Shown here piece after piece: positions 17,515 to 62,815 of a DNA stretch of 64,000 nucleotides. The stretch is taken from the sequence record PZ171033.1; one strand, given 5' to 3'. The position numbers and the translations under genes were made by a program. Source of the stretch: a phage. Under the pieces are notes generated by a model. It made no database searches. It was given only the letters and a program-made list of their open reading frames with translations, and was not told the DNA's origin. The first letter of the stretch is position 1, and each line of letters begins with the position of its first letter.

Positions 17515-18068
17515 TGAAAATCCCAATTGTCGGTGCAGACATTAGTCTCCGCAATTGGGGTTTAGCTCGTGGGATGCTGGACATTGAGTCCGGCGTCTTC
17601 GAGCAGGTCGAACTTAAACTGGTTCAAACTGAAGTTGACCACAACAAACAAGTTCGAACCAACTCCAAAGATATACAAGCCGCTCACGATTTGTTTCTTG
17701 GTTGTGAGGAATGGTTACGGTCTGCTAAAGCAGTGTTCGTAGAAGTACCAGTAGGCTCTCAGTCTGCTAACGGTATGAAATCCTATGGTGTATGCATAGG
17801 ATTAATCGGTGCATTTCATGCATTGGGTTGTCCAATCTTTGAAGTATCCCCAATTGAAAACAAACTTGCACTGGTCGGTGATAAAACTGCATCCAAAGAC
17901 ACGATGATCCGTGCTGCTCATGCCATCTATCCCGAAGCCAACTGGCTCACGGATAAGAAAGGCAAACTTCTGAATAAGAATGAGCACTTAGCAGATGCAA
18001 TCGGTGCAATCCATGCTGGTGTAAATCTCCCAGCTTTCCAGAACCTCATTAAGTTATTAAAGGCGTAA
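17514..18068 (+). CDS. RuvC-like Holliday junction resolvase
   Basis: N-terminal KIPIVGADISLRNWGLA resembles RuvC/YqgF first motif. Confidence 0.5.
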   Translation: MKIPIVGADISLRNWGLARGMLDIESGVFEQVELKLVQTEVDHNKQVRTNSKDIQAAHDLFLGCEEWLRSAKAVFVEVPVGSQSANGMKSYGVCIGLIGAFHALGCPIFEVSPIENKLALVGDKTASKDTMIRAAHAIYPEANWLTDKKGKLLNKNEHLADAIGAIHAGVNLPAFQNLIKLLKA

Positions 18069-22407: not shown

Positions 22408-25400
22408 TTAGTTTATCAGGTTCATCCAAGGGTTCAGGTTGTGAGCACGTAAGCCTTGACCGAAACCGAAGGAGTAACCAAGATTGCCCTGTGCAGCAAT
22501 ACTAAAGATGTTGTCCTGAATAGGCAGGCCAACGTTACCAAACATGGTAGGGGTTGGGGCCAACATAGCCATAGCAGCATGAACTGGGTTATTACGAATC
22601 ATGGACACTGCAACTTTTGCAGAACGAATCTTAAAGTTGTAGAACCACATCAGACCAACACTTTCCATATACCCACGGAAACGACCTGGCAGACGATCAT
22701 AGTTAATAAACTCTTCCGTTACACGTCCTAGTGCTTCTTCGCGAGTCTTACCTTTACGCTGAGTTAATTCATCATAGATGATTGCTTTAGCAATAAAGTC
22801 AGAGTACTCAACCGTCTTCTGGATACCCTGGAACAAAGCAGTATCCTTAGTGATAAGTGCATAACGACCAGCATTACGTACAGACTTAGGCAGCTTATCA
22901 GCCAACTTATCCATGTACTCGTGAAGTTTACCTTCAGTAATCAGGATGTCGTCACGACCAATACCAGCGTCTGCAATTGAAGAGAACTCACCTGCTTCTA
23001 ACAGGGGCCAGATACTCAAACGCTTATGACTATCAGAGATGGACTGAATCTCAGCCTTAAGTTTACGAATCTGGTTCGGGTTAGTAGCTGCACGTAATTC
23101 TGCTTCTGCATCTACCTGACGCAGACGAGATTTCAGATACTGGTTAATCTCAGCAGTTTTCTGTGGAATGCTCTTAGCAATGTTCTTAACAGGTACACCA
23201 CGAGCAACCATCTGGTAAAGGTTAGCCAGGAAGTTAACAGCAGGTACGACTACTGACTTAACTACAATCAGGGTCTTAGCTTCTTTAACTAAATTCTGAA
23301 CCAGGTTCTCACCACCCATTACGTATTTATAGGCACGGTTACCGAAGACACCCAACATAGCTTTCTTGAAGGTATCCAGTGTTTCTTGGGACCAACGAGA
23401 GTTACCAGACCAGGCATCACCAACAGAAGCTGCACGATAGCCGAGAGCATCATTGAGCATGTCACGACGTACCCACAGCTCACCAGGACCAAACAGACTT
23501 TCTGCTTTCTGACGTGTTTCACTATTCATCAGCTTAAGTGCATCGGCAGTTACTGGGTCCAGTTTAGAACCAAGAAGGTTAACGTACTGGGACTTATTAG
23601 AAGCAGACATCTTAATGTCGTTCTCATACATGCTATGCAGGTTCTCAATTAGCATATCGTTGAAACGCTGAGCCTTAGCCTCTTCTACCTGACGACCACG
23701 CCATACACCGATTGCACGAGCAAGATGGTTCTCACCCTCAATGTGCTTCAGCATGTTAGGGTCAATGGATTGCTCATAAGCAACCACATTACCATTGGCA
23801 TCATATACAGGCAGAAGTGGTTCATTACCACGTTCACCACGAGCCAGTGCTTTAGTGATACGATCTACAGAAGGCTTGTCAGTAATACGACCAGCTACCA
23901 TGGTTCCCATAGTAAAGCCTGTACCAAGGTCCACACCACCAGCAGTATTGCGAACGTTCTGTAAGATACCCTGTGAGAATGGGGCCTGTGCCTGTACTGG
24001 TGCGAAGTAGTAGCTACGAGCAGGACCACGATTAGCAGAGCTACCCTGATATGTACCCAGTCGTACATAGGATTTCTCAATCAAATCAGCAAACTGACTA
24101 TCTTCAGCAACAATCAGATTAACACCCTGTTTAGTCTCACTAGGGATATGCCCTTTGTACTGGTTCAGGGTTGCACGCATATCAGATTTGGCTTTAGCCA
24201 TTTCATCTTTACGCTGACCAACCAGGTAAGAGGTGGCAAAGTCCATCCCATCAACTTCTGTCTGAGCCAGTGAAGATAACATCTCACGGTCGGACTTGTT
24301 CATTGCTTCCAGTGCATACAGGGTAATCAGTTTATCCAGTTGAGCTACATCTACAGTAGAGCGTGCAGCCTGACGTTCACCCAGCATACGGGAGATTGCA
24401 GTAGCATTACGCAGCAGGTTTTTACCGACAGTACCATTAATCATGTACTGAGCCAGTTGCTTAGATTTACGGTTAATCAGAGGCCAGTTACGACCAGCTT
24501 GTTTCTGCAAATCTGCTTCCAGCTTATTCACTTCACGGTCAACAATCTTCTGGTCAGTCAGTAAGTCACGGATTTCAGCCAGTGACATAGTGTCACGCAG
24601 GACAGCTAAATCTGTTTTACCCATACCAGTATGCATTACTTTCCACTCATCATTAGTCAGCTTACGGCTGAACTTAGATGCGATAGTAGTAGGCAGATGT
24701 TCACGGAACTGCTGACGGTCTGCCTGCACCTGTGCACGTACTGCTTTAATCAAATCGTATACAGAAGCATTGCTCTTAGTACGACCGGTTAAGTCATTAA
24801 CCAGGTCATGGAAAGGTTGCCATACCTTACCCTGGTTCATTGCAGCCATAACACCTTCAGCTACGATTGCACCATTCTTCTCTGTAGCAATAGCAGCTAC
24901 CAGTTGTGCAGCATGAGCAGCACCTTTAACCAATGGATTATTGGTATTGGCTGCAACTTCACGAGCACCTTCCAAAGCACGGGTAGATAGTACATCAATA
25001 GAATCCACCAGATACTGGTTAGCACGGTCAATAGCATTACCAGTAGGAGTAGCAACGGAATCATAGAAGGATTCTGCATTAAGACTGGTCTGCATAATCG
25101 TCTGAGCCAGTGCATCCATACCTTCCTGTACGTTAGTAGCTTTAGTATCACCTGCTACACGAGCATTCAGACTAGCCATTGCAGCAGTACCAATGTTAGT
25201 CAGCATTGCATCAACGGTATTACCTGATTTCTTATCTGCTTTCATGACAGGAATGTCAGCCAGTACTTTACGTACTTCTTCACTTACCATTGCCAGACCA
25301 ACAAAGGTAGGCAGTAAAGAAGATCGACCTTGTGCATCAAACTCAATGTTGTTAGCACCCATGATGGTATCGAACTTCTGCTGTGCATAATAACGATCAG

Positions 25401-28400
25401 CAGGGTTAGTACTATCTGGGTCAGCCATAAATGCTTCGACGGTCAGATTCTTAGTAACATGCGTGTAGTATTCCTGTGCACGAGCCATAGCAGCAGGGTT
25501 AACAGCAGCCTCGGTAGCCAGTGCAGCAACAATATTGGTAAAGAGACGCTGTTCCTGCATATTCATGGTGAAGCCATGAGCCTGAACATCACGAGTTACT
25601 TTAGTTGCATTTACTACTGCATCAGAGAACTTACCTTTGCGAATTACTTGCTGTACTGGTTCTGAACCAATGTAGTTAGTAATTAGCTTATCAAAGGTTT
25701 TCCCTAGCTCTTCCAGACGAGTATTTTCACCATACGCTTTGTTATGGAACAGAGTAGTATCTTTGGCTACAGCAGCAGTAGGAGCTTGCCCACGCATTAC
25801 TACAGCAGAGTTAAACAGTAAGCCAGAGAACATATCTTCTGCATTAGCAGGAGCTTTCTTACGTCCAAATACCAGACGTTTGATTGCTTCATATACAGCC
25901 TGAACCATAGTTTTAAGTGCAGTGGTTTTCTTCTGCTTACTAATCAGTTCTCGGTTGGTTAAACCCCAAGCCATGTACTCGTTCAGTGCAGCAGCTTTAG
26001 CCATTGCTGGTTCAATAAAGCCATTGGATAGGTGACCATTAATGGTATTCAGTGCATCAGCATATGCTTCTCGTACTGCCGGAGATTCATCCCTAACATC
26101 CAGAGCACGGAACTGATTCATCAGGTCTTCGATGTTCTGGACTGCTTCATTAGGAGTGCCTTCATAGTGAGCCAGTACAGATTCAAAAGTAGAAGCATGT
26201 ACCAATTCATGAACCAGAGTCTCTAAGGAAGGGGTAACTAAGTAGATGGTTTTATCTTCAAAGTTAGTCCAGCCGTATGCATTACCAGCTTCAGCAGCTT
26301 CAATATCTTCCGGTGCTGGGCGAGTAATGTTCTTCTCAATAGCATAGGCATCCAATTGAGCAGGTGTACCGTAAACAACTTTATAGTCTTTAGCAGCAAG
26401 GGATTTCTGTATTTCTTTCAATACTTCTTGCTGTTCAGGAGACATCTCTTTAGCCAGTTTAGTAATGGCAGTGTTAGACAGCAGACGTACACCAGACTTC
26501 AGTACACGACCAACCTGTTCCATCGCCGGTACTTCTTCCACTGGTTCTGCTTTAGTAGCACGTACTGCTTCACGACGCTTATTTAATTCAGCATCAAACA
26601 GTTCGTTCAGCTTAGCTACTTGCTGGTCTACAGTAAGACCTTCCAGAGAGATTTTACCGTTGTTCACATAAGGAGCACCTACGGCAGCCATCTGGTCAAC
26701 AGTGACTTGTACCTGGTCCATTACCTTGTGACGAATATCTACACCCAGAGCAATGTTACGCAGGTTACGTTCAATCTGCTCAGCACCGACACGTAACAGG
26801 TCATCAGTAGCACCCTCACGTTGGTCATACTCCAGAGCAGACTTAGCGATAGCCTGTTTGGTTTCATCAGACAGTTTACTGAAGTCTACGTTCTTCATGA
26901 ACTTAGCGTAGGAGTCATAAACATTCTTGATAGGGTTACCCTGCCAGGAAGTATATACAGCCTCATTAGCTTTGCGACTTGCATCAGTGATGTCATTGAT
27001 ACCAATGTTCATACCATCAAAGATTTTCAGGGTATTCTTCGGAGCACCTTTCATAGTAGAAAGTGTCTGCATCATCATGCCATCACCAGTACCGATGGTC
27101 ATAAATGGAATACCTGCAACACCTGCCTGTGAAGGAGCATAAATGCTCATTGGCACACGCATACGGTCATCTAAGTTAGTAGCCAGTACTTGGTTAGCAA
27201 CATCAGTATTCTCACTACCAGCAATGTAGAAAGTCTGTGAACCAGTCTCAATCATTGGAGCCAGTGAAGATAATGATTCCTGGATTTCATTCAGTTCTTT
27301 CTGCGTTAAGAAATCACCTTTCTTCCAGGTTGGGTCTTTTTCTTTTTCTGCCAGCTTAGCCTGTACTGCTTGCTGGAACATATCCTGCAATACCAGAGAT
27401 TGAATCTGGGTAGCCTTCTGCAAGTTCTCGGTAGAGTGCATCAGACCTTCACCAACAGTATTACGGATACCAGTACGCATTGGTTCAACGAACAGGTGGA
27501 GCATGTTCTCTTGTAAGTTCTTCAGGGCATTACCGGATACGGTAAATTTCTGGGGGTCTAACTTACCAGTCAGAGCACCATCTACTTGCTGAATAGACAA
27601 CTCACCTTTACGCATAACTGGAACATTACCAGTCAGTGCTTCCATAGAAGTAAGGAAAGTATCCAACATAGCCTGAGCATCAGCTTCAGACGCAGCCTCC
27701 TTACCAAACATTGCCATAGCTGGGGAAATGCTAGGGTCAGCAGCTCGTGCTTGCAGAACGTCACTGAAGCGTTCGTAGATGGTATCAGTAATTGCACTGA
27801 CCATCTTGCCAGCAATACCACGAGCACCAGAACCATAGATGGTAATGGTCAGTGGGTTTTTAGCAATACCACGTTTCAGGTCCAGAGTACCGTCTTCATT
27901 CAGGTTAAAGTCTTTAATGAACAAGTCCATTAACTTCTGGAGATGATTCATCTGGCTCATAACTGGAACGTTGTTACGGTAAGTAGTACGTAACTCATTC
28001 AGTGCTTGTTGAAGACCATTGGTAGATGCTTCATACAAGTCAACATTATCGTCGATAGAACAATGTTCGTTCATCGTTTTACCAGCACGACCAAAGAACA
28101 AACCACCTTTGGCAGTGTTCTTAATCCAGTCTGGAGTGAACTTACCACCAGTCATTAATACCATTGCGTTGATTGGGCCGTTGGTTACACCATCAGCTTC
28201 AACGTACAGTGGAGTAGTAAAATTAGCACGGTCATCACTGTTCAGGTAACGGGCATATTCCATCAGAGCCATGAGAGCTACGAAGGATTTATCACTACCC
28301 AGAGAGGTCTTCAGGATGTCTACTGCATCTGTCGGTAAGTGACCAGACTTATCAAACTCAACCATCATATCAACAGCAGGTTTCAGTTTACCTTCCAGAG

Positions 28401-31400
28401 CTTTAGTTAACTCTTCAGACATAACTTCACGGGACATTTTATGTACCTTGATGCCTAATGCCTGAGCCAGACCTAACTGGAAGTCAGAGAACGCTTGGCT
28501 GTTTTCATTACTCAAGTCGATAGTAGAGAAGGTTGGTAGGATTGCTTCACGAACCAGCTTACTGGATTGTGGGTTGTTCTTACCAAGCATCTGCATACGA
28601 CCTACACGGGTCATGTTATAACCGTAGTGGATAGGTGTATCCAGACCATTCTCTTGTTCTCGTATCTGATTAATTACACCGAACAGAGAATCATATGCCA
28701 TAGACACGGACAGGTTTTTACCTTCCAAAGATTTAGCAGTGTTCGCGTTCAGTAATTCTGGATTAAGAGTACCAGCACCCATCAGTTCCAGAATGTTGTC
28801 ACGCCCCAATGCTTCATAGAAGTTAACCATTGGCATATGTACACGGAACTCGGTAGCCTGTTCAGCTTTCAGTGCAGCCTTCTGTTCAGGGGTATTCTTA
28901 ACAGCAGGGTTACGCAACTGAGTCTGAGCCACAGAAGGAATGTCATCACCAAAGTACATTTTCTCTTCTGGTTCTAAGAGGACAGCTTCCTCAATAGCAG
29001 TAGGGAATTTATTAATGGCATCATTGTCATCCAACTTCTCAATGGTATACAGACCAACAGTCTTATTGGAGTCTGGGTCAATCTCAGACACATCCAACAT
29101 AGACTCTTTAACTTCACCCATCTCAATGAGAGAAGACAGAATCTCTGTAGCCATTGCCATTGGGATACCTTTGGTATAACCCAGCGGTGCATTAGGATTA
29201 CGATTCAAACCCCAGTAGGATTCAATCTTCTGAGCCAGTGAGTTAGTAGCTTCAACCAGGGTCTGGGCATTCTCGAACTCAGCCAGAATACCTTCTGGTA
29301 ACAGAGATGCTTCTACGCCTGTAATAGCAGCTACGTCTTTCATATCTTTAATGGCAGCATTCTGTGTAGTAGTCAGTCGCCATTGCAAACCAGCAAGCAC
29401 AGCAGTCTCTAACAACTGGTCGTTGAACTTAAAGGTATCCCCATCTTGTTCAACTATATTCAGCAGTTTGCCACCTACCCAACGGTTAGCTTCAGTACCT
29501 TCTGCAAAACGTTTACCAACGTTCTTATTAGCAAGGAACTTAGCCAGACGTTCAGACAAAGTAGTCTTCAGAGTTTCACCAAAGTCCATTAAGTCCTGAT
29601 AACGCTTAATCACATCACTAGTGAGAGCGTTATTTTCTTTTTGAGTGAATGCCTCAAAGCGAGCAGCAGAAGACAGTGCTTGCTTAATATCAGTCAAAGG
29701 AGATTCTGAACCAATGGTACGGGACTTAGGTTCTTCCGGTAAGGTAAATGCTTTCAGGAACTGGTTCGGTGTCTTTTCATTGTTATAGACAGGGAACACT
29801 GTTTCCATTTCTGTTTTGGTTTCAGCTACTTCCTGGATGGTATCCTCATTCTTGAGAATAGCATCTACTGTTTCAGGCTTAGTAGTAGAGACTTCTTCTG
29901 TTTTTGGACTAGTCTCCTTAGTAGGAGCAGTCTTATTTTCTACCACAGGTTTAGCTTTAGGCTGTACAGTAGTAGTGTCCTCTTGCACTGGTGCAGGAGA
30001 TTCATCAACCTGATTCACTGGTTCATTAGTCTGTTGAGACTGAGTGGCATCAAGACCACCTTGACGGAACTCTTTAACTACCTGGGCAGCAGGCTTGTTC
30101 AGACGTGAATCCAACGAGGTAACTTTCACATGAGAAACATTAAGCTCCGGGTAAGCCGTAGCAAGTGCATTAGCAATATCAGCTACGGTTTTGGCTTCCA
30201 GTCCTACTTGCTGGGCAAACTTAACAGACTTGGTATCGTAAGGATTGACACCGAGGCCAGTACGACTACGTACCCATTCACGGGAAGGCGAGAGAGCCTG
30301 ATAATGAACAGACTTATTCTTATCCGCATTCCCCGAAATCAGATGCTCATTCAACGCTCCGACCTTATTCTGCATGTGCTGGGCGAACTTCATAAAGTCG
30401 CTCAGATAAGCGGAGGCCAAATCGAAGTTACCAGAGTTATACGCAGAACGAATGCGTTTCGCATGTTGCAACGCAGAGTACTGTCCTTCATTAGAACGAG
30501 ACTCGTCGGTTTTAATCTGTTTACTAACAATGTCTTGAGGACGTAAGCCTAGTTCTTCTGCTTTAGCGTCGAACTCACGTGCACCCTGTAACAAGGCAGC
30601 AGCAGATTGCAGGGCAGCACGTTGACGATTCCCCAGTGTAATCTTACCTTCACTTGCGTGCTTCAGAACCATGTTCACTGAATCTGCATCCAGTACTTCT
30701 GGAGACACATCAGCAGCCATAGCAATGTTGTTTGCTTGGGCTTGATTAGCTTCTTCAGTAGCTTTCAGCTTACCTGCTTCAGCCTGTTCCTGAATCATGG
30801 AATGGATGGCACGGAATGCACGGAGTACTTTAGGGGTATTCTGTACGTTAGCCATCAAGCCAGAGAACTGGTCTACGATTGTAGCAGCAGGAGAACCTTG
30901 TTCCAGATTAGCCAGAGCACCTGGGTCACGGTTAATGAAGCTATCCATAGACATGATGTTGTCATACATCTGGATTGCAGCTTCCATTTGAACGTTAGGG
31001 TCTTCAGCAGTATTAACCAGGTCAGCCATCTTCTGAATAGCTTCAACACGGTTAGTGGAACCAGAAACAGCTTCACGGATTGCCGGGTTAGCTTGTTCCA
31101 ATTCTACCGGGTCAAACTTCATTGCCTGAGTTAAGTCAGCAGCATACTGGGTAGCAGCAGCTTTCTCTTCTGGAGTGATGTCCATTGCATCCACTGCTTC
31201 TTGTACAGTTGCCTGTGCTTGTTCTGCCTGAGCAGCAGCTTCCTGTGCAGCAGCATTAACCGTAGCATCAGCTACAGGGGATGCTTGTTCATTACGCTTA
31301 GCAACTTCTTCACCACGTTGAATCAGGATGTTAGTAAGAGGGGATGCAGCTTTTGCTAATGTTTTGCCAACCAGAGAAGCACCAGCCAGGGTAGTACGAA

Positions 31401-32760
31401 GAGCAGGGCCAGCAGAAGCACCAACTGCTTTAACAGTTGTACCAGGAGCTTGAGCAACCCCAGCACTACCGAATCCATAAAGTGCACCCAGACCTGCTTG
31501 CTCACCAACCCCTTTGAGGGTGTCACGGGATGCATCAACGTTTTCTTTGATTGCAGTATTCTGTGCGAACTGACCAAAGCCGGATTGAATACCTTCTTCG
31601 ACTGTTTCACGTAGCATATTAGAACCAGCACCTGCCAGTGAACCTACCTTAAGTGGGTTAAGTTCAAAGCGAGATACCAGTGGACCGGTAGCAGCAGCAA
31701 CTGGAGCAGTTAAGCCAGCAGCAATGATACCTGTTTCAGATGCAGTCTGACGTCGTGCTTCATCAGGAGATAAACCATCAGCAATATGTTGCTGGTAAAC
31801 AGGAGACTTACTTGCCAGTTCTTGGTGGGACATCTTCATGATTTCAGAAGCAGTCTGTTGGTATGCACCACCAGCTTCCATACCACCAATTGCAATAGCA
31901 GGTGCAGCAACACGACCAGCAGACAGTGCAACCTGTGCAGGACGTGAACCTAACCCAGCAGCTAAGGTAATACCTTTAACAGCTTTATCACCTCCTACCA
32001 TTACTTTACCTAATGCAGATACACCACGGATAAGTGGACCACCAGTAAAGAGGGAACCAACACCTTCACTCAGTCCGTCGGAAGCAGCCATACCATTATC
32101 AAGTGTATTAGCAACAGAATCAAAAGCGTCACGACCAATACGAGACAGGGAGGCAACCAAATCGCTCTCTCCGTTTTTTATATCTTGTTCATAGAGTTTC
32201 TGGTTCTTTTGGGCAGAAATCTGGTTCTGATTCTGAACAACTTTACGGGTAGCATTCAGTGCATCAGACTGTAGATTGTGTACACCTTCATTCAACCAAT
32301 CCATCCCGGAAGCAATGGATGCCCCGGCATTATCATTGACCAGACCTGTGCCAAGAGCAGCAATGCCCCCAAGGGTATTAGCAACACCAAGACCAACACC
32401 AGAAAGAGTATCGCCAAATGCTTCTGCGTTAGTACGTTGTTTAGATAAGCCCTGACGTACAACATCAGTAGCATTAGCTCGGCTATTAAGAATCTGTAAA
32501 CCTTGCTCATTACCATACTTATTAATGATTTCTAAGGGAGAGGCTTGAGTGAAATCTGCCTGAAGTGAACCGGGTTCGAATGCACCGATTCCAAGATTAC
32601 CTACTCGTCCAGTCTGGAGATTGTAAGCGTTCTCTGGGGTTAATTGGAAAGGGCTTTGCCCTTGTGCAGCTTGCTTCTGAGAGGTTGCAGTAGAGACATC
32701 GACTTGCTTAGCATTAGTGATGCTGTCTGCGAAACCTGCCAGACGGTCAAATGTTGACAT
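22408..32760 (-). CDS. giant virion-encapsidated RNA polymerase (N4 vRNAP-like)
   Basis: About 3450 aa; T7-like motif B KRGIAKNPLTITIYGSGARG; start set to ATG 32760 with AGGAAAC RBS (ORF track 32778 is TTG). Confidence 0.85.
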   Translation of the reverse strand: MSTFDRLAGFADSITNAKQVDVSTATSQKQAAQGQSPFQLTPENAYNLQTGRVGNLGIGAFEPGSLQADFTQASPLEIINKYGNEQGLQILNSRANATDVVRQGLSKQRTNAEAFGDTLSGVGLGVANTLGGIAALGTGLVNDNAGASIASGMDWLNEGVHNLQSDALNATRKVVQNQNQISAQKNQKLYEQDIKNGESDLVASLSRIGRDAFDSVANTLDNGMAASDGLSEGVGSLFTGGPLIRGVSALGKVMVGGDKAVKGITLAAGLGSRPAQVALSAGRVAAPAIAIGGMEAGGAYQQTASEIMKMSHQELASKSPVYQQHIADGLSPDEARRQTASETGIIAAGLTAPVAAATGPLVSRFELNPLKVGSLAGAGSNMLRETVEEGIQSGFGQFAQNTAIKENVDASRDTLKGVGEQAGLGALYGFGSAGVAQAPGTTVKAVGASAGPALRTTLAGASLVGKTLAKAASPLTNILIQRGEEVAKRNEQASPVADATVNAAAQEAAAQAEQAQATVQEAVDAMDITPEEKAAATQYAADLTQAMKFDPVELEQANPAIREAVSGSTNRVEAIQKMADLVNTAEDPNVQMEAAIQMYDNIMSMDSFINRDPGALANLEQGSPAATIVDQFSGLMANVQNTPKVLRAFRAIHSMIQEQAEAGKLKATEEANQAQANNIAMAADVSPEVLDADSVNMVLKHASEGKITLGNRQRAALQSAAALLQGAREFDAKAEELGLRPQDIVSKQIKTDESRSNEGQYSALQHAKRIRSAYNSGNFDLASAYLSDFMKFAQHMQNKVGALNEHLISGNADKNKSVHYQALSPSREWVRSRTGLGVNPYDTKSVKFAQQVGLEAKTVADIANALATAYPELNVSHVKVTSLDSRLNKPAAQVVKEFRQGGLDATQSQQTNEPVNQVDESPAPVQEDTTTVQPKAKPVVENKTAPTKETSPKTEEVSTTKPETVDAILKNEDTIQEVAETKTEMETVFPVYNNEKTPNQFLKAFTLPEEPKSRTIGSESPLTDIKQALSSAARFEAFTQKENNALTSDVIKRYQDLMDFGETLKTTLSERLAKFLANKNVGKRFAEGTEANRWVGGKLLNIVEQDGDTFKFNDQLLETAVLAGLQWRLTTTQNAAIKDMKDVAAITGVEASLLPEGILAEFENAQTLVEATNSLAQKIESYWGLNRNPNAPLGYTKGIPMAMATEILSSLIEMGEVKESMLDVSEIDPDSNKTVGLYTIEKLDDNDAINKFPTAIEEAVLLEPEEKMYFGDDIPSVAQTQLRNPAVKNTPEQKAALKAEQATEFRVHMPMVNFYEALGRDNILELMGAGTLNPELLNANTAKSLEGKNLSVSMAYDSLFGVINQIREQENGLDTPIHYGYNMTRVGRMQMLGKNNPQSSKLVREAILPTFSTIDLSNENSQAFSDFQLGLAQALGIKVHKMSREVMSEELTKALEGKLKPAVDMMVEFDKSGHLPTDAVDILKTSLGSDKSFVALMALMEYARYLNSDDRANFTTPLYVEADGVTNGPINAMVLMTGGKFTPDWIKNTAKGGLFFGRAGKTMNEHCSIDDNVDLYEASTNGLQQALNELRTTYRNNVPVMSQMNHLQKLMDLFIKDFNLNEDGTLDLKRGIAKNPLTITIYGSGARGIAGKMVSAITDTIYERFSDVLQARAADPSISPAMAMFGKEAASEADAQAMLDTFLTSMEALTGNVPVMRKGELSIQQVDGALTGKLDPQKFTVSGNALKNLQENMLHLFVEPMRTGIRNTVGEGLMHSTENLQKATQIQSLVLQDMFQQAVQAKLAEKEKDPTWKKGDFLTQKELNEIQESLSSLAPMIETGSQTFYIAGSENTDVANQVLATNLDDRMRVPMSIYAPSQAGVAGIPFMTIGTGDGMMMQTLSTMKGAPKNTLKIFDGMNIGINDITDASRKANEAVYTSWQGNPIKNVYDSYAKFMKNVDFSKLSDETKQAIAKSALEYDQREGATDDLLRVGAEQIERNLRNIALGVDIRHKVMDQVQVTVDQMAAVGAPYVNNGKISLEGLTVDQQVAKLNELFDAELNKRREAVRATKAEPVEEVPAMEQVGRVLKSGVRLLSNTAITKLAKEMSPEQQEVLKEIQKSLAAKDYKVVYGTPAQLDAYAIEKNITRPAPEDIEAAEAGNAYGWTNFEDKTIYLVTPSLETLVHELVHASTFESVLAHYEGTPNEAVQNIEDLMNQFRALDVRDESPAVREAYADALNTINGHLSNGFIEPAMAKAAALNEYMAWGLTNRELISKQKKTTALKTMVQAVYEAIKRLVFGRKKAPANAEDMFSGLLFNSAVVMRGQAPTAAVAKDTTLFHNKAYGENTRLEELGKTFDKLITNYIGSEPVQQVIRKGKFSDAVVNATKVTRDVQAHGFTMNMQEQRLFTNIVAALATEAAVNPAAMARAQEYYTHVTKNLTVEAFMADPDSTNPADRYYAQQKFDTIMGANNIEFDAQGRSSLLPTFVGLAMVSEEVRKVLADIPVMKADKKSGNTVDAMLTNIGTAAMASLNARVAGDTKATNVQEGMDALAQTIMQTSLNAESFYDSVATPTGNAIDRANQYLVDSIDVLSTRALEGAREVAANTNNPLVKGAAHAAQLVAAIATEKNGAIVAEGVMAAMNQGKVWQPFHDLVNDLTGRTKSNASVYDLIKAVRAQVQADRQQFREHLPTTIASKFSRKLTNDEWKVMHTGMGKTDLAVLRDTMSLAEIRDLLTDQKIVDREVNKLEADLQKQAGRNWPLINRKSKQLAQYMINGTVGKNLLRNATAISRMLGERQAARSTVDVAQLDKLITLYALEAMNKSDREMLSSLAQTEVDGMDFATSYLVGQRKDEMAKAKSDMRATLNQYKGHIPSETKQGVNLIVAEDSQFADLIEKSYVRLGTYQGSSANRGPARSYYFAPVQAQAPFSQGILQNVRNTAGGVDLGTGFTMGTMVAGRITDKPSVDRITKALARGERGNEPLLPVYDANGNVVAYEQSIDPNMLKHIEGENHLARAIGVWRGRQVEEAKAQRFNDMLIENLHSMYENDIKMSASNKSQYVNLLGSKLDPVTADALKLMNSETRQKAESLFGPGELWVRRDMLNDALGYRAASVGDAWSGNSRWSQETLDTFKKAMLGVFGNRAYKYVMGGENLVQNLVKEAKTLIVVKSVVVPAVNFLANLYQMVARGVPVKNIAKSIPQKTAEINQYLKSRLRQVDAEAELRAATNPNQIRKLKAEIQSISDSHKRLSIWPLLEAGEFSSIADAGIGRDDILITEGKLHEYMDKLADKLPKSVRNAGRYALITKDTALFQGIQKTVEYSDFIAKAIIYDELTQRKGKTREEALGRVTEEFINYDRLPGRFRGYMESVGLMWFYNFKIRSAKVAVSMIRNNPVHAAMAMLAPTPTMFGNVGLPIQDNIFSIAAQGNLGYSFGFGQGLRAHNLNPWMNLIN

Positions 32761-32823
32761 AGCATGTTTCCTGTTCAAACTTATATCGTATATAGGTAAC
32801 TTACTCTACAGTAAGCCAGTTAA

Positions 32824-56950: not shown

Positions 56951-57108
56951 CTGCTTATAAGTGAGATAGCTATGATATTTTTGCATGTCAAAATGTTGAT
57001 AGCTATGTATGGCTACAGTGGTGTGGCTGGGGCTACACCCTTACACTCAACCATCCCCCCCGGTATGTTGACCGTGTAGCCACTACCCTACCCCACCTTA
57101 CACGTTAC

Positions 57109-57123
57109 ACATGCTCCGCATGT
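57109..57123 (+). promoter_or_regulatory. 3-nt-loop hairpin, candidate vRNAP early promoter
   Basis: ACATGC-TCC-GCATGT, then NNNGG; intergenic upstream of gene at 57166. Confidence 0.35.
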
Positions 57124-57165
57124 TATGGACATGTCGTCCTATCATCAACTATTGGAGCTATCATC

Positions 57166-57489
57166 ATGACCACTACCGCTACTGTACGTATGACTGCAGG
57201 AACTTTACTTGGTACTGTTAACTCAGCTGCTACTACTGTTGCAGATACATTTGGTACAGCAACTAAAGCAGTAGGTATGCTTAATTCATATGTAAGTACT
57301 ATGGCAGAGAAACAAGCCATCCGTACTAAATTAGAAATGCATACCTTTGTTAATAAACTGGCAGAGGAAACAGCTATGACTGAGACTCTGCGTAAGAAAA
57401 GTATCGAGGAATTCTGCAAGGATTCAGAGAACGCTCGTATCTATAACGCAGAATATTCCAAAGTAATTGACATCCTGACTAAAGACTAA
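57166..57489 (+). CDS. early protein
   Basis: 107 aa. Confidence 0.5.
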   Translation: MTTTATVRMTAGTLLGTVNSAATTVADTFGTATKAVGMLNSYVSTMAEKQAIRTKLEMHTFVNKLAEETAMTETLRKKSIEEFCKDSENARIYNAEYSKVIDILTKD

Positions 57490-57496
57490 GTCACAT

Positions 57497-57524
57497 AGGA
57501 GACTCTTCGGAGTCTCCTGTTTTG
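57497..57524 (+). terminator. intrinsic terminator
   Basis: GGAGACTC-TTCG-GAGTCTCC then TGTTTTG. Confidence 0.6.
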
Positions 57525-57597
57525 AACATTAGATAGATAGTCAAAAGTAGATAACTATCTACTTTAAGTTAACTAACTCGCACTATCTTTAAAAGAA

Positions 57598-57612
57598 AGA
57601 CGCTCCGCGTCT
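57598..57612 (+). promoter_or_regulatory. 3-nt-loop hairpin, candidate vRNAP early promoter
   Basis: AGACGC-TCC-GCGTCT then AAAGG. Confidence 0.35.
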
Positions 57613-57722
57613 AAAGGATAAGAATGAATCCACTTCTTATCGAAATCTTAAGTCTTTTCTTGGGTTTAGTCACCGACAGACAAACCCATAAATCAAAAAA
57701 TCATTTATCTGGAGAGTACAAA

Positions 57723-58103
57723 ATGTCTATTCAAAAATTCACTTTCGGTCAATCTAACACTGCTGCTTCTACTGCTAAAGCTGATAAACCAAAAGCTCAG
57801 TTCTGGCTGAACATTGGTTATGTGGCTAATGAAGGCTCTGATGATGAGAAATTCATCTCACTGCCTACTGGTATTCCATTGGATACTCAGGAACCGCTGC
57901 CTACTAACAGCAGCAATGCTGACTTCCGTGCTATGCGTTGTGCACAGAACGATTTGCTGGAACAGTTAATCGAATATGCTCAGAACCTGGAACCAGGTGA
58001 AGAGGGTATCATTAACCTGCAAGTTCAACTTCGTCGTGTGAAAGCAGAGGCTGCTGACATCCCAGCAGACGAGAATAAATATGCTCGTAAACTGACTTTC
58101 TAA
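57723..58103 (+). CDS. early protein
   Basis: ATG 57723 with GGAGAG RBS. Confidence 0.5.
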
Positions 58104-58112
58104 TCAACCAAT

Positions 58113-58141
58113 AGACTCCCTTCAGGGAGTCTTTTATTTTT
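58113..58141 (+). terminator. intrinsic terminator
   Basis: AGACTCCC-TTCA-GGGAGTCT then TTTATTTTT. Confidence 0.65.
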
Positions 58142-58246
58142 AACTAGACGATAAGCTATTTCTACTTTTTGAGTATCTTTAGACGAAGGGTACTGAAACA
58201 GTAACCAGATAGATATAGATTTATATTAGATGAAGGAGTAACCATT

Positions 58247-58543
58247 ATGCGTACAATTTGTAACCGTTATAACTCACAGAAGTTGATTGAAATGTTACAA
58301 CCTTGGGGTAGTAAGATGGCACTGAATGCACGTTGGCAGGTATCTGTAGAAGGTGCAAATGGTCAGTGTTATGACCACTTCTTTGTAGCTAAGCCTACTC
58401 GTAAACAAATCCGTAAACTCCATAAAGTACGTAAGCATTACTTACTAAGCAAATGCTACGAATGCGGAAAAAGGATAGAACTGGGTAAAGAATTTACCTG
58501 GGATGGCTTAAACTATGCACACACTGACTGCCTGAAAGGATAA
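58247..58543 (+). CDS. Cys/His-rich putative zinc-binding protein
   Basis: CYECG and HTDC motifs. Confidence 0.5.
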   Translation: MRTICNRYNSQKLIEMLQPWGSKMALNARWQVSVEGANGQCYDHFFVAKPTRKQIRKLHKVRKHYLLSKCYECGKRIELGKEFTWDGLNYAHTDCLKG

Positions 58544-58547
58544 GACT

Positions 58548-58766
58548 ATGTTGGACTTCATTGCGTTTGTAATACTCTGTTATGTGCTGTATCGCCTGCG
58601 TGGTTACATTCTCAATGGAGCCAAGTGGGTAAGAACTAAGCTGGTACTTATCTGTAAGTTACCAGTTGTATTCGTTAAGTGTCTGTTTGCTTCCATAGTA
58701 GCTAAAGAAGTTCGTAAGCAACTCTGGGCTAAAGAAGCAGAAGAGTTTGCAAAGAGGAACCAGTGA
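58548..58766 (+). CDS. small membrane protein
   Basis: Hydrophobic N-terminus. Confidence 0.45.
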   Translation: MLDFIAFVILCYVLYRLRGYILNGAKWVRTKLVLICKLPVVFVKCLFASIVAKEVRKQLWAKEAEEFAKRNQ

Positions 58767-58928
58767 TATTCACTAACATTGAGGATGCCATTGAAGAATG
58801 TATCTTCCGTAGATATCACACTGGAGTACAGAAAAGACACTATGGTGTTGTACAGCTCAATGGCTATCAAATGGCTGTAAGAATTGTACGTAACAATAAA
58901 CCTTTTAACTTTATGTGGAGTACTAAAC

Positions 58929-59111
58929 ATGCGTAAGTCATTAATCATGGGAACCAGAGAAGATGTGTCACGTTTACGTAATCGTAATGCAGCAAGCAAA
59001 CGGGCACTCAGCATGACCAATGAACAACTGAAAGAATTCATTGATTCAGGACTTAAGCAAAGTAAAGCTCGTATCGTAACCTTTAATCACCCTGCAATCT
59101 TAGGAGAATAA
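58929..59111 (+). CDS. small hypothetical protein
   Basis: ATG 58929 with GGAG RBS. Confidence 0.45.
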   Translation: MRKSLIMGTREDVSRLRNRNAASKRALSMTNEQLKEFIDSGLKQSKARIVTFNHPAILGE

Positions 59112-59112
59112 A

Positions 59113-59328
59113 ATGTATTTCACTATCTTAATCACCTTAACCTACTTAAGCGTATGGCTTACCTCAGAAGCAGCTAATATCACTAAAATGTTTCGTATTA
59201 AAGGAGATGTCAGGGGATTTGCTGTATTCGGGTATGTCACTGTACTAAGTAAGGGAGCCAGTGTTGGATATGTAATATGGTACATTTGGTACTGCTTCGG
59301 TGATTTACTTACGAATCTGTTCAAATGA
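59113..59328 (+). CDS. small membrane protein
   Basis: Hydrophobic helices. Confidence 0.45.
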   Translation: MYFTILITLTYLSVWLTSEAANITKMFRIKGDVRGFAVFGYVTVLSKGASVGYVIWYIWYCFGDLLTNLFK

Positions 59329-59388
59329 ACTGGCCTATCTCAATAATCATGCTTGCACTGTTAACCTATGGTGCATTAGTAGAACTGG

Positions 59389-59423
59389 GAGTCCTCCATT
59401 AGGGGGACTTCTATTTTTTATTT
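59389..59423 (+). terminator. intrinsic terminator
   Basis: 9-bp stem GAGTCCTCC/GGGGGACTT, loop ATTA, then TATTTTTTATTT. Confidence 0.55.
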
Positions 59424-59448
59424 AGATAAATAGACTCAGGAGATAACC

Positions 59449-59667
59449 ATGCAACAAGAACATATCGAATCATTAGAGTATATGTGCCGTATGTACGGTG
59501 TTTATGAAGTAGCTAAAACAATAAAGAATTATGCTAAGAAAACCAGTAAAGAGTATAAGAAAGCTGGTAATGAAGGTGCAATAATCCACCAGGATGCTGA
59601 AATCTTAGATACTGCATGCAATGCAATGGCTATTGCCCATCCACTAAGGAGTAAAGATGTTAAATGA
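59449..59667 (+). CDS. small hypothetical protein
   Basis: 72 aa. Confidence 0.45.
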   Translation: MQQEHIESLEYMCRMYGVYEVAKTIKNYAKKTSKEYKKAGNEGAIIHQDAEILDTACNAMAIAHPLRSKDVK

Positions 59668-59968
59668 AATTGTTTGTATACTTCCTCATTCAGCTAAGAT
59701 AGCTGACCGGAATATACGTATACACTTACCATTCCCATTAAGCAATCCATTCACTCGTAATGAAAGAACCACAGTAGAAGATGTAGAGGTAGCTTATGAA
59801 GCTTACCTTCGTAATCGTCTTATTAGTGGTGACAAGTTAATTACAGCAGAGATGGAAAGGATTGCATCCTTTGTAACAGATAGTACAGGTAAGCCTGTTG
59901 GCTTAATTGGTACTGAATCTGATGTTAACGTTATTCGTAAAATATTAATGGAGGCTTTAAGCCAATGA
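59657..59968 (+). CDS. small hypothetical protein
   Basis: 103 aa. Confidence 0.45.
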   Translation: MLNEIVCILPHSAKIADRNIRIHLPFPLSNPFTRNERTTVEDVEVAYEAYLRNRLISGDKLITAEMERIASFVTDSTGKPVGLIGTESDVNVIRKILMEALSQ

Positions 59969-60186
59969 TGTACACGAGCGATTATGGTATTTGCCCAGTC
60001 TGTAAGAAAGGACGTGGAGTTGCCAATCATAAACGTTGTAGTCGTATATTACAGAAACAACGGAACCAGGAAGAATGGGATAAGTTGTTAAATAATCAGC
60101 ACAAAGAAGAAAATCAACAGATGGCTGTTAAAGCATCTACTCAACGTATTCGCCGTATTAACTATATACAAGGATACCAAAAGTGA
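59965..60186 (+). CDS. zinc-ribbon protein
   Basis: CPVCKK ... HKRC. Confidence 0.45.
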   Translation: MMYTSDYGICPVCKKGRGVANHKRCSRILQKQRNQEEWDKLLNNQHKEENQQMAVKASTQRIRRINYIQGYQK

Positions 60187-60440
60187 TTATTACCTATCCT
60201 ACTCACAAGATGGTTGAATATATGGGAAGCACTGTCGATGTCCCTTTATGGGTTAATTACATTGCTTTGCTTCCTAATGTATTTACTAAGAGTTCAACCT
60301 TAATTGGATTCAGTCATAAACCTAAACTAACTGACCAAGGAATATGGGTTAGTAAGAAAGGTAAGCAAGAAGATATAGGCGTTATGACACGCTTTAAACC
60401 CACTAAAGATTTAATCTACGGTACTTTAAGGAAAGTATGA
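60183..60440 (+). CDS. small hypothetical protein
   Basis: 85 aa. Confidence 0.45.
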   Translation: MIITYPTHKMVEYMGSTVDVPLWVNYIALLPNVFTKSSTLIGFSHKPKLTDQGIWVSKKGKQEDIGVMTRFKPTKDLIYGTLRKV

Positions 60441-60751
60441 ATAACATAATAGTAGTACACGATAATACATTTACTGATGTAGATAAGATGATGCGTAATA
60501 TTGATTATGTATCTCAGACTAGTAAAGCATTCAATGAAGAGTTTACTCTGTACTGTAATGCTGAATCTCCACTGGTTCCTATTCTTAAGGAATCAGGACT
60601 ACCATTCTCTACAGAGAACTTCCCGGAAGAACCAGACTATGTAATTTCATTTATCTATGACTTACATGATGGTTCTGAAACTAGTGAATTAGCTATGAAC
60701 CAGTGGCGTAGTAAACGTCCTGTATTCCCATTCCAGGTACTTAAACCATGA
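60437..60751 (+). CDS. small hypothetical protein
   Basis: 104 aa. Confidence 0.45.
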   Translation: MNNIIVVHDNTFTDVDKMMRNIDYVSQTSKAFNEEFTLYCNAESPLVPILKESGLPFSTENFPEEPDYVISFIYDLHDGSETSELAMNQWRSKRPVFPFQVLKP

Positions 60752-61128
60752 AGATTATGTCATTAGGTGACGATACCAATGCTTTACTTGGTGTATCTGC
60801 ACGTCCAATTATTATTGTTAATAAACATCGTGGTAAATCCGGTGAGTATATTGGACGTGGTTCACCGTTAGGCAATCCATTTGTCATTGGTAAACATGGA
60901 ACCAGAGAGCAAGTAATTGCTAAGTATAAAGTCTGGTTACAAGAACAGATTGATAAAGGTAATCCAGTTGTATTGGATGAACTTAATCGTCTGGGTAATA
61001 AAGCCATTGATGAGAAAGGGCTAGCCTTACAATGCTTCTGTTATCCGAAACCGTGTCATGGTGAGGTTATTAAAGAGAAGCTAGTGAAAGCTATGTATAA
61101 CTATTTTGTGGAGAATCCTAATGGATAA
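60748..61128 (+). CDS. DUF4326-like protein
   Basis: IVNKHRGKSGEYIGRGSPLGNPF and C-terminal CFCYPKPCHG. Confidence 0.5.
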   Translation: MKIMSLGDDTNALLGVSARPIIIVNKHRGKSGEYIGRGSPLGNPFVIGKHGTREQVIAKYKVWLQEQIDKGNPVVLDELNRLGNKAIDEKGLALQCFCYPKPCHGEVIKEKLVKAMYNYFVENPNG

Positions 61129-61306
61129 GCAATGCAAATGTGGTAAAGGCCATGTATCCCAATGGGATGGTAAATGTGGTCATTGCCGAACCAAGAAAGA
61201 ACAGCGTGACCATGAATATGCTCTTACTTACTTAGAAGTAACTCGTAAATACAACAATATGACCACACACGATGCTTATACTTACAACAGAGAGGCATGT
61301 AAATGA
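61121..61306 (+). CDS. zinc-ribbon protein
   Basis: CKCGKGH ... CGHC. Confidence 0.4.
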   Translation: MDKQCKCGKGHVSQWDGKCGHCRTKKEQRDHEYALTYLEVTRKYNNMTTHDAYTYNREACK

Positions 61307-61683
61307 AAGAAATCTTAGTATTCGGAAGTAATTTAGCAGGCCGTCATGGTGCTGGTGCAGCAAAAGTTGCATATAAGAAGCATGGTGCTCGTTGGGGTAT
61401 GGGCGTAGGCCATTATGGTTGCAGCTATGCAATCCCAACCAAAGACCAGAACATCAAATCTATGAAACTGGATGACATCAAAGTATTCGTAGATGCTTTC
61501 ATCCTATACGCAGCATCACACCCAGAGTGGGACTTTAAAGTAACACGCATTGGTTGTGGTTTAGCTGGATATAAGGATGAAGAAATTGCTCCTATGTTTG
61601 CCAATGCTACAGGCAATGTCATGTTTGACGAAGCCTGGAAGCCTATTCTGGGAAATGATTATATCTACTGGGGAACCTTCTAA
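61303..61683 (+). CDS. hypothetical protein, glycine-rich Rossmann-like N-terminus
   Basis: ILVFGSNLAGRHGAGAAKVA; family not recognised. Confidence 0.5.
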   Translation: MKEILVFGSNLAGRHGAGAAKVAYKKHGARWGMGVGHYGCSYAIPTKDQNIKSMKLDDIKVFVDAFILYAASHPEWDFKVTRIGCGLAGYKDEEIAPMFANATGNVMFDEAWKPILGNDYIYWGTF

Positions 61684-61943
61684 TGACATATGAAGAACTA
61701 TGGGCTGCTCAGGTCAGAGCCAGAGCACTCACACGGCATGACATCTATTGTGCATTACAGAACGAATTAAAGGGACGTACTAAGCTAGGTCACATATCAG
61801 GTTTCATTAAAATACCTATGCGTAGTCTAGTATGGCCTTATAAAGAAAAAAGTAATGAATTTAGCGGTAATGGTTTATATGTACGTATCAACTACCTTGG
61901 TCAAGAGAACAATATTCGTATTGCCTTTTGGACTAAGCGTTAG
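61683..61943 (+). CDS. small hypothetical protein
   Basis: 86 aa. Confidence 0.45.
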   Translation: MTYEELWAAQVRARALTRHDIYCALQNELKGRTKLGHISGFIKIPMRSLVWPYKEKSNEFSGNGLYVRINYLGQENNIRIAFWTKR

Positions 61944-61948
61944 GTAAT

Positions 61949-61963
61949 AGCTGCTCCGCAGCT
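61949..61963 (+). promoter_or_regulatory. 3-nt-loop hairpin, candidate vRNAP early promoter (or short terminator)
   Basis: AGCTGC-TCC-GCAGCT then TTTGG; upstream of RNAPII gene. Confidence 0.35.
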
Positions 61964-61996
61964 TTTGGTTATTAATAACATTTAGGAGAATATGCG

Positions 61997-62815
61997 ATGT
62001 ACTCATCTATTGAACATCAGAAGCAGCTTGAAGTCCTTTTTAACAAAAACCAATTACTGCCTCGCATGAGGAAGGAATTCGAGGACTCCAAAGAAATTGA
62101 CTTTAAGGCATTCGCTGCCTATTTAGAAATTGATTATAAGCTGCTCATTGATGCAATGGTGCAGATTGCCCTACATAAACGTGCTGACATCCAGACTATG
62201 ATTGGCTCTCTCATGAGTCACTCAGATGATGCTCAGTACATCGCTGACTGTCTGTATAAGATGGCAGAGAATGACTGCTTCAACTATGACCCTACCATCG
62301 ACAAGTTCGGTGTTATCTATGAGATTAGTGAAGATGTTCAGATGGAACTGGAAGCATTCCAGTATCCATTACCAATCGTCAGTAAACCTAAGCCTGTCCT
62401 GACTAACCGGGACACTGGTTACTATGAGTCTAAAGGCTCAATCATCCTCAAGAAGAACCATCATGAGATGGACGTCTGCCTTGACCACATTAACCGCATG
62501 AACAACCAACGTCTCTGTATTAACTGGGACGTTGCTAACTATGTAAAAGACTCTCGTCCTAACATGGATAAACCCAAAGAGGGTGAAACCCGTCAGGATT
62601 ATGAGAAACGTGTTAAAGCCTTTGAGAAGTACAGTCGTACTGCTAAGGAAGTAATGGAGTTAGTAACCAAAGAGGGCAATAACTTCTCGCTAGCGCATAA
62701 GTATGACAAGAGGGGCAGAACCTATGCCTGTGGATACCACATTAACTATGCGGGGACTTCATATAACAAGGCAGTGATTGAATTTGCAGATAAAGAACTA
62801 GTAAACGAGGATTAG
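61997..62815 (+). CDS. T7-like RNA polymerase N-terminal-half subunit (N4 RNAPII small subunit-like)
   Basis: YDKRGRTYACGYHINYAGTSYNKAVIEFA resembles T7 RNAP DWRGRVYAVS...; 272 aa. Confidence 0.7.
   Translation: MYSSIEHQKQLEVLFNKNQLLPRMRKEFEDSKEIDFKAFAAYLEIDYKLLIDAMVQIALHKRADIQTMIGSLMSHSDDAQYIADCLYKMAENDCFNYDPTIDKFGVIYEISEDVQMELEAFQYPLPIVSKPKPVLTNRDTGYYESKGSIILKKNHHEMDVCLDHINRMNNQRLCINWDVANYVKDSRPNMDKPKEGETRQDYEKRVKAFEKYSRTAKEVMELVTKEGNNFSLAHKYDKRGRTYACGYHINYAGTSYNKAVIEFADKELVNED

Follow-up and report, generated by a model that had tools for sequence, protein, structure and literature searches.

Three short hairpins in a 64,000-nucleotide stretch of phage DNA (sequence record PZ171033.1; the whole stretch is called the window below) are very probably the early promoters of a G7C-like schitovirus, orthologous to promoters P1, P2 and P3 of phage N4 and read by the injected virion RNA polymerase (vRNAP). 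The first-pass annotation of the window had proposed N4-type vRNAP early promoters, and this reading is backed by the uniqueness of the motif, its positional orthology with N4, covariation within the stems and the conservation of the vRNAP residues that recognize it. By megablast, the window belongs to the N4-like phages of the G7C/Gamaleyavirus group, with about 90% identity to relatives including Klebsiella phage vB_Kpl_K57alpha1.2 and Escherichia phages IME11, PhAPEC7, Bp4 and others.

Sequence, position and uniqueness of the hairpins

All three sites are intergenic and lie on the + strand, as follows.

57109..57128, + strand, site 1 (predicted P1 orthologue): ACATGC-TCC-GCATGT + TAT + GG; hairpin 57109-57123; predicted +1 at 57127
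57598..57617, + strand, site 2 (predicted P2 orthologue): AGACGC-TCC-GCGTCT + AAA + GG; hairpin 57598-57612; predicted +1 at 57616
61949..61968, + strand, site 3 (predicted P3 orthologue): AGCTGC-TCC-GCAGCT + TTT + GG; hairpin 61949-61963; predicted +1 at 61967

Each stem is a perfect 6 bp with no seventh pair, the loop is TCC, and 3 nt lie between stem and GG, giving a loop-to-GG distance of 9 nt. Because the non-template loop is TCC, the loop of the template strand is 5'-GGA-3' at all three sites. The sequences and coordinates in the first-pass annotation proved exact, including the perfect stems and TCC loops, and the GG that it noted at +4/+5 after the stem is present at each site and corresponds to the +1/+2 start (the predicted starts were obtained by numbering from the loop). 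Its intergenic placement of the hairpins upstream of plus-strand early genes also stands, with orthologues of N4 gp1, gp2 and gp15 directly downstream. Site 1 is flanked by the left end of the genome (about 57025) and the ATG of gp1 (57166), site 2 by the stop codon of gp1 (57489) and the ATG of gp2 (57624), and site 3 begins 6 nt past the stop of an open reading frame (ORF; 61683-61943), with the ATG at 61997 a further 34 nt on. From the first G of the GG to the next ATG, the distances are 39, 8 and 30 nt for sites 1, 2 and 3, respectively. When the template strand was folded as single-stranded DNA (ssDNA), the minimum free energy (MFE) or centroid structure was the expected hairpin at the three sites, and the MFE structure at site 2 was the 6-bp/3-nt hairpin (z = -2.9); folding was computed on single strands only.

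Perfect hairpins with a 6-bp stem and a 3-nt loop number 41 in the 64 kb, and the three sites are the only ones with a TCC loop (3/41). Counted over both strands, the heptamer GCTCCGC has three occurrences, always at these sites, against 2.3 expected, and its count alone was rejected as a signal. Since the heptamer by itself is as frequent as expected, the signal resides in what is added to it: each copy in the window also has four further unforced complementary pairs and a GG at fixed spacing. In its non-template form, the N4 definition reads T-[C/T]-C-G-C, N7, G. Both strands were scanned with a relaxed functional definition that requires a T[CT]C loop, GC at -9/-8, G at +1 and at least 4 bp of stem. 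Exactly these three sites were recovered in the window, compared with a mean of 0.087 and a maximum of 2 in 300 dinucleotide-preserving shuffles; when at least 6 stem pairs and a TCC loop were required, the shuffle mean was 0.003. The genome-wide hairpin search suggested in the first-pass annotation thus returned, within the 64-kb window and on both strands, the three sites only. No equivalent hairpin lies inside the coding regions of the window, where many such copies were to have counted against the promoter reading.

Only one other hairpin in the window combines a T[CT]C loop with at least 5 stem pairs and a G at +1; it is located at 17803-17829, inside a + strand ORF (TGCAT-TTC-ATGCA followed by ttgg-GT). 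It does not have the GC at -9/-8, fails the N4 rule and is probably due to chance. No Rfam family matched at the three sites; the sole Rfam match, a sub-threshold U6atac match at 58031-58142, was dismissed as chance. Sigma-70 promoters were likewise rejected as candidates, as no + strand -35/-10 match (16-18 bp spacing) adjoins any site, and the region holds 11 matches against 20.8 in shuffles.

Correspondence with the N4 early promoters

The N4 early promoters P1, P2 and P3 have been characterized in detail (Haynes & Rothman-Denes 1985; Glucksmann et al. 1992; Davydova et al. 2007; Gleghorn et al. 2008; summarised in PMC4496689). Their template-strand determinants are -12A, -11G/A, -10G, -9C, -8G, +1C and a 3-nt loop; the N4 vRNAP specifically reads -11A/G, -10G, -8G and +1C, the loop-closing pair together with the loop 5'G and 3'A is required for extrusion and stability, and the remaining stem bases are free provided that they pair (PMC4496689). 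All of the published determinants were found at 3/3 sites in the window. Each site is an inverted repeat with a 3-nt loop centred at -11 and a stem within 5-7 bp, carries template -9C/-8G with G-C loop-closing pairs, and has template +1C at a fixed spacing from -8, so that the RNA would start with G, as in N4 P1-P3.

As a positive control, the complete 70,153-bp N4 genome was rebuilt (L001, L032, L023, L033) and scanned with the relaxed definition. Exactly three sites were returned, with loops at 95, 564 and 4553, and there were no false positives. They lie upstream of gp1 (GTTGC-TTC-GCAAC-TTATGG), gp2 (AAGAAGC-TCC-GCTTCTT-TTGG) and gp15 (AAGCTGC-TCC-GCAGCTT-TTGG). In the P2 template oligonucleotide used for cryo-electron microscopy (cryo-EM), the segment made up of hairpin, AAAA spacer and start site (5'-CCAAAAGAAGCGGAGCTTC-3') has the P2 site (loop at 564) as its reverse complement (PMC13492108). 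The number of N4 early promoters is given differently within the literature: the discussion of PMC13492108 mentions "four early promoters (P1-P4)", while its introduction and PMC4496689 give three. In the complete N4 record, a strict scan recovers three and no more.

The window sites share with N4 P1-P3 the GC-T(C/T)C-GC heptamer centred at -11, the 3-nt loop, the 9 nt from loop to GG and an A/T spacer, as well as the same three positions near the left end, upstream of gp1, gp2 and gp15, and a cognate enzyme with conserved base-reading residues. They differ in stem length, which is 5, 7 and 7 bp in N4 but 6 bp at all three window sites, in the P1 loop (TTC in N4, TCC in the window) and in the variable stem bases of P1 and P2.

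The positional orthology extends to the DNA terminus. From nucleotide 1 onward, the N4 genome can be aligned base for base with window DNA from 57025, and the records of many relatives start at the equivalent of about window position 57024. By this alignment with the N4 terminus, the window is circularly permuted, and the distance of site 1 from the physical left end is about 90 bp; measured from that end (~57025), sites 1, 2 and 3 are at 0.09, 0.58 and 4.9 kb. In the alignment with the N4 left end, site 1 falls column for column on the P1 hairpin of N4, and most of the P1 flanking sequence is shared. A 403-bp direct terminal repeat is annotated in Mimir124, starting at the equivalent of window ~57024, and the N4 terminal repeats are 390-440 bp (PMC3715699). 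If the repeat is as in Mimir124, site 1 would be inside it (window ~57025-57427) and would be present in two copies in virion DNA, one near each end.

Conservation and covariation of the stems

Single-protein queries reached close relatives only, and the comparison was widened by tblastn in a phage collection. Hairpins at the three positions are kept in IMG/VR relatives and in annotated phages; site 1 is identical in seven relatives, and L014 and L017 share with the window an identical 25-nt stretch at site 3 (-21 to +4). Chance inverted repeats with a common short GC-rich core would be compatible with the ordinary frequency of GCTCCGC alone (3 vs 2.3). However, only 0.003-0.09 copies of the full motif are expected per window against three observed, and the motif recurs at orthologous positions in N4 as well as in over a dozen relatives, which leaves a chance origin with an almost negligible probability.

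Covariation was assessed in a set of 28 distinct sites from relatives, chosen by GCT[CT]CGC and GG at +1/+2 alone, a selection blind to stem pairs 3-6. The two inner stem pairs are invariant, with the GC core in 28/28 sites. Pairs 3 and 4 are also paired in every site, and they do so with five and four pair types, respectively. Overall, 94.6% of the cells are paired, compared with 13-45% after sliding of the 3' partner by 1-3 columns, and double-sided changes affect 33 cells against 9.2 in shuffles. The outer stem is free in identity but must pair, while the core is fixed, which is the published N4 rule.

This pattern also bears on whether the hairpins could be palindromic operators, bound as duplex DNA by a dimeric phage or host regulator. 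Their 15-bp near-palindromes do stand at intergenic regulatory positions. Yet operators conserve sequence, not complementarity, and here the outer stem varies freely but always on both sides, with half-sites that differ among the three copies in one genome. In addition, the central TCC is asymmetric and keeps a constant orientation to the downstream gene, and an exact match to N4 P2, an element for which the structure in complex with vRNAP is available, accounts for the conservation. Operators are therefore highly improbable.

The loop asymmetry, the closing GC-GC pairs and the GG at fixed spacing are invariant in the related sites, and none of these is a property of a terminator. According to a further alternative, the hairpins would act in RNA, as intrinsic terminators or processing sites for upstream transcripts, and would not be promoters. 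Read-through from upstream promoters would indeed transcribe sites 2 and 3, and site 3 was flagged as terminator-like, its stem being followed by TTTGGTTATT. However, a T-rich tail on the + strand is found at site 3 only, the stems of sites 1 and 2 being followed by TAT and AAA with no T-run, and site 1, about 90 bp from the genome end, has no upstream gene to terminate. Separate and much stronger terminator-like hairpins (57498-57524 and 58113-58142, listed below) also stand just upstream of or between the sites. As a class, the sites do not combine a GC-rich stem with a T-run directly after it, as Rho-independent terminators do; site 2 was flagged on the minus strand only, where no co-oriented gene ends. 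Terminators or processing sites in place of promoters are thus very unlikely, and a secondary terminator role is conceivable for site 3 alone.

Several close relatives have an extra N4-type hairpin between gp1 and gp2 (L006:153/437, L008:1225/1481, L009:1216/1480 and L034:16251), and the number of promoters therefore ranges from three to four within the group. In L034 (vB_Kpl_K57alpha1.2), the extra hairpin is visibly accompanied by about 0.7 kb of inserted DNA between gp1 and gp2. The GenBank annotation of this phage (OY979416.1) is out of register with its sequence, listing replication genes over early-region DNA and flagging almost all coding sequences as partial or pseudo, and was not used. 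A site at L005:508 (AACGC-TCC-GCGTT) has the core and a 5-bp stem with CG in place of GG at +1/+2 and may be decayed or non-canonical.

The virion RNA polymerase

The predicted reader of the hairpins is encoded in the window.

22408..32778, - strand, vRNAP of 3456 aa: phmmer E=0, colinear over residues 7-3455 with the N4 vRNAP PDB chains

Its polymerase domain aligns with N4 mini-vRNAP at 72.7% identity. Residues are named by mini-vRNAP numbering, whose offset of +997 was validated on N4 gp50, where 9/9 named residues land correctly. In the window vRNAP, K114, R119 and W129 of the -10/-11 recognition element are conserved, as are D901 and R904 of the specificity loop, which read -9/-10 and -8, the backbone contacts K849 and K850, and K268. 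Since both the hairpin core and the base-reading vRNAP residues are kept, enzyme and signal are conserved together.

Some points weigh against the promoter reading. K267 of the beta-intercalating hairpin, the sole named residue changed, is Asn in the window vRNAP (residue 1238). The z-scores of the ssDNA folds are modest, from -1.2 to -2.9, as expected for 15-nt hairpins. The covariation score of 0.538, against 0.129 in shuffles and reached by 0/500 of them, is not a probability and overstates independence because the sequences in the set are related, a weakness from which the slid-partner control is free. The window covers about 88% of the genome, and the remaining ~7.8 kb, about 11%, was checked only through a 90%-identical relative: no further promoter site was found in L034 23648-31429, the stretch of the closest relative that bridges these ~7.8 kb. 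Finally, initiation at the window promoters is predicted by analogy with N4.

In N4, K267 of the beta-intercalating hairpin melts the base of the 7-bp P2 stem. One could imagine that the uniform 6-bp stems and the K267N change represent a co-evolved shift in how the junction between duplex and single strand is set, and that sites 2 and 3 have a dual role, as vRNAP promoters and, in the form of RNA hairpins, in the attenuation or termination of upstream early transcripts (at site 3, the stem is then followed by UUUGGUUAUU). This combined scenario is considered unlikely.

Proposed mechanism of early transcription

If the three hairpins function as vRNAP promoters, infection may proceed as in N4, from which extrusion, the dependence on single-stranded DNA-binding protein (SSB) and gyrase, and the actual initiation sites are extrapolated. 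The left genome end would enter first and be supercoiled by host gyrase, so that the inverted repeat could extrude as a cruciform, whose non-template arm would be melted by host SSB. The template (minus-strand) arm would persist as a 6-bp hairpin with the loop 5'-GGA-3'. The vRNAP may then read -11G via stacking of W129 and via R119, -10G via K114, and -9C/-8G via D901 and R904 through the major groove, with the A/T spacer serving as a ruler and GTP initiating opposite +1C. The resulting RNAs are predicted to start with GG at 57127, 57616 and 61967 and would encode gp1, gp2 and the RNAPII subunits, by which middle transcription would be switched on.

Comparison with other phages and novelty

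Putative promoters P1-P4 with the same motif, found by similarity to N4, have been listed in Klebsiella phage KP8 (PMC6950046, Table 1). KP8 P2, AAGACGCTCCGCGTCTTATGGA, holds the whole 15-nt hairpin of site 2 (AGACGC-TCC-GCGTCT) with the same 3-nt spacing to GG. It differs in its spacer, TAT against AAA in the window, and KP8 has four sites instead of three and belongs to a different genus-level lineage.

More distant hairpin promoters are found in Pseudomonas phages. Cappable-seq in LUZ7 mapped early hairpin promoters at which transcripts start with G, and nine early transcription start sites were reported (PMC9163698); a homology-based list of such promoters is available for LIT1 and LUZ7 (PMC3715699). 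Those of LUZ7/LIT1 resemble the window sites in the template-strand hairpin, the 3-nt loop, the downstream G start, the left-end location and the dependence on vRNAP, but they have stems of 4-5 bp and a different core, as in AGCC-TTC-GGCT and CACC-TTC-GGTG at 137 and 802 of LIT1 (L029). Pseudomonas phage Zuri (L027) carries GGTGC-TGC-GCACC and GACGC-TGC-GCGTC at 94 and 741, each followed by 4 nt and GG; its template loop, GCA, has a central pyrimidine, in contrast to the purine rule of N4. The strict N4 core was not found in the early regions of LIT1, Pseudomonas Zuri, Erwinia Tellus and Enterobacter EcP1, and no repeated motif was evident in those of Tellus and EcP1. Single-subunit RNA polymerases of the T7 type belong to the same polymerase superfamily and likewise have a specificity loop and an intercalating hairpin, but their promoters are 23-bp duplex sequences without extruded single-strand hairpins (PMC4496689).

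The class of hairpin promoters, their mechanism and the structure of the polymerase complex are long established for N4 (PMC4496689, PMC13492108), and the finding in the window is already known in kind. The promoters are not annotated as features in the two Gamaleyavirus GenBank records inspected, Mimir124 and PhAPEC7, and a literature search, whose reach did not include the original G7C paper, found no report of hairpin promoters in Gamaleyavirus. As the class is known, the inspected records lack the sites and no report for the genus was found, the finding amounts at most to a useful annotation. Marking the sites would define the early units P1-gp1, P2-gp2... and P3-RNAPII together with their predicted 5' ends, and the comparison shows that, across Enquatrovirinae, the promoter code of N4 is conserved jointly with the vRNAP residues by which it is read. 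No new question is opened, as the N4 mechanism has been established since the 1980s-2000s, with both crystal and cryo-EM structures of the complex available.

Early genes and terminator-like hairpins

The genes directly downstream of the three sites were identified by comparison with N4.

57166..57489, + strand, gp1 orthologue, first early gene, downstream of P1: 66% identity to N4 gp1, E=7e-51
57624..58103, + strand, gp2 orthologue (RNAPII cofactor in N4), downstream of P2: 68% identity to N4 gp2, E=7e-86
61997..62815, + strand, gp15 orthologue (RNAPII subunit), downstream of P3: 64.6% identity by tblastn to the N4 "RNAP1" gene, 4606-5409

The gp2 mRNA would be nearly leaderless, as the predicted P2 start at 57616 precedes the ATG at 57624 by just 8 nt (10 nt in N4). 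An in-frame ATG at 57723 has a strong Shine-Dalgarno sequence, GGAGAG, and is surrounded by an SGEYKM motif that is also conserved in gp2 of N4 (region 57616-57726). Either the ATG at 57624 or that at 57723 may serve as the start codon of gp2.

Three terminator-like hairpins were located in the same part of the window.

57498..57524, + strand, after gp1: GGAGACTC-TTCG-GAGTCTCC + TGTTTTG; a homologous hairpin follows N4 gp1
58113..58142, + strand, after gp2: a terminator is annotated directly after the gp2 homologue in PhAPEC7
59386..59423, + strand, inside the early region: 12-bp stem and a T-run

The hairpin at 57498-57524 may function as a terminator and would separate the P1 and P2 units.

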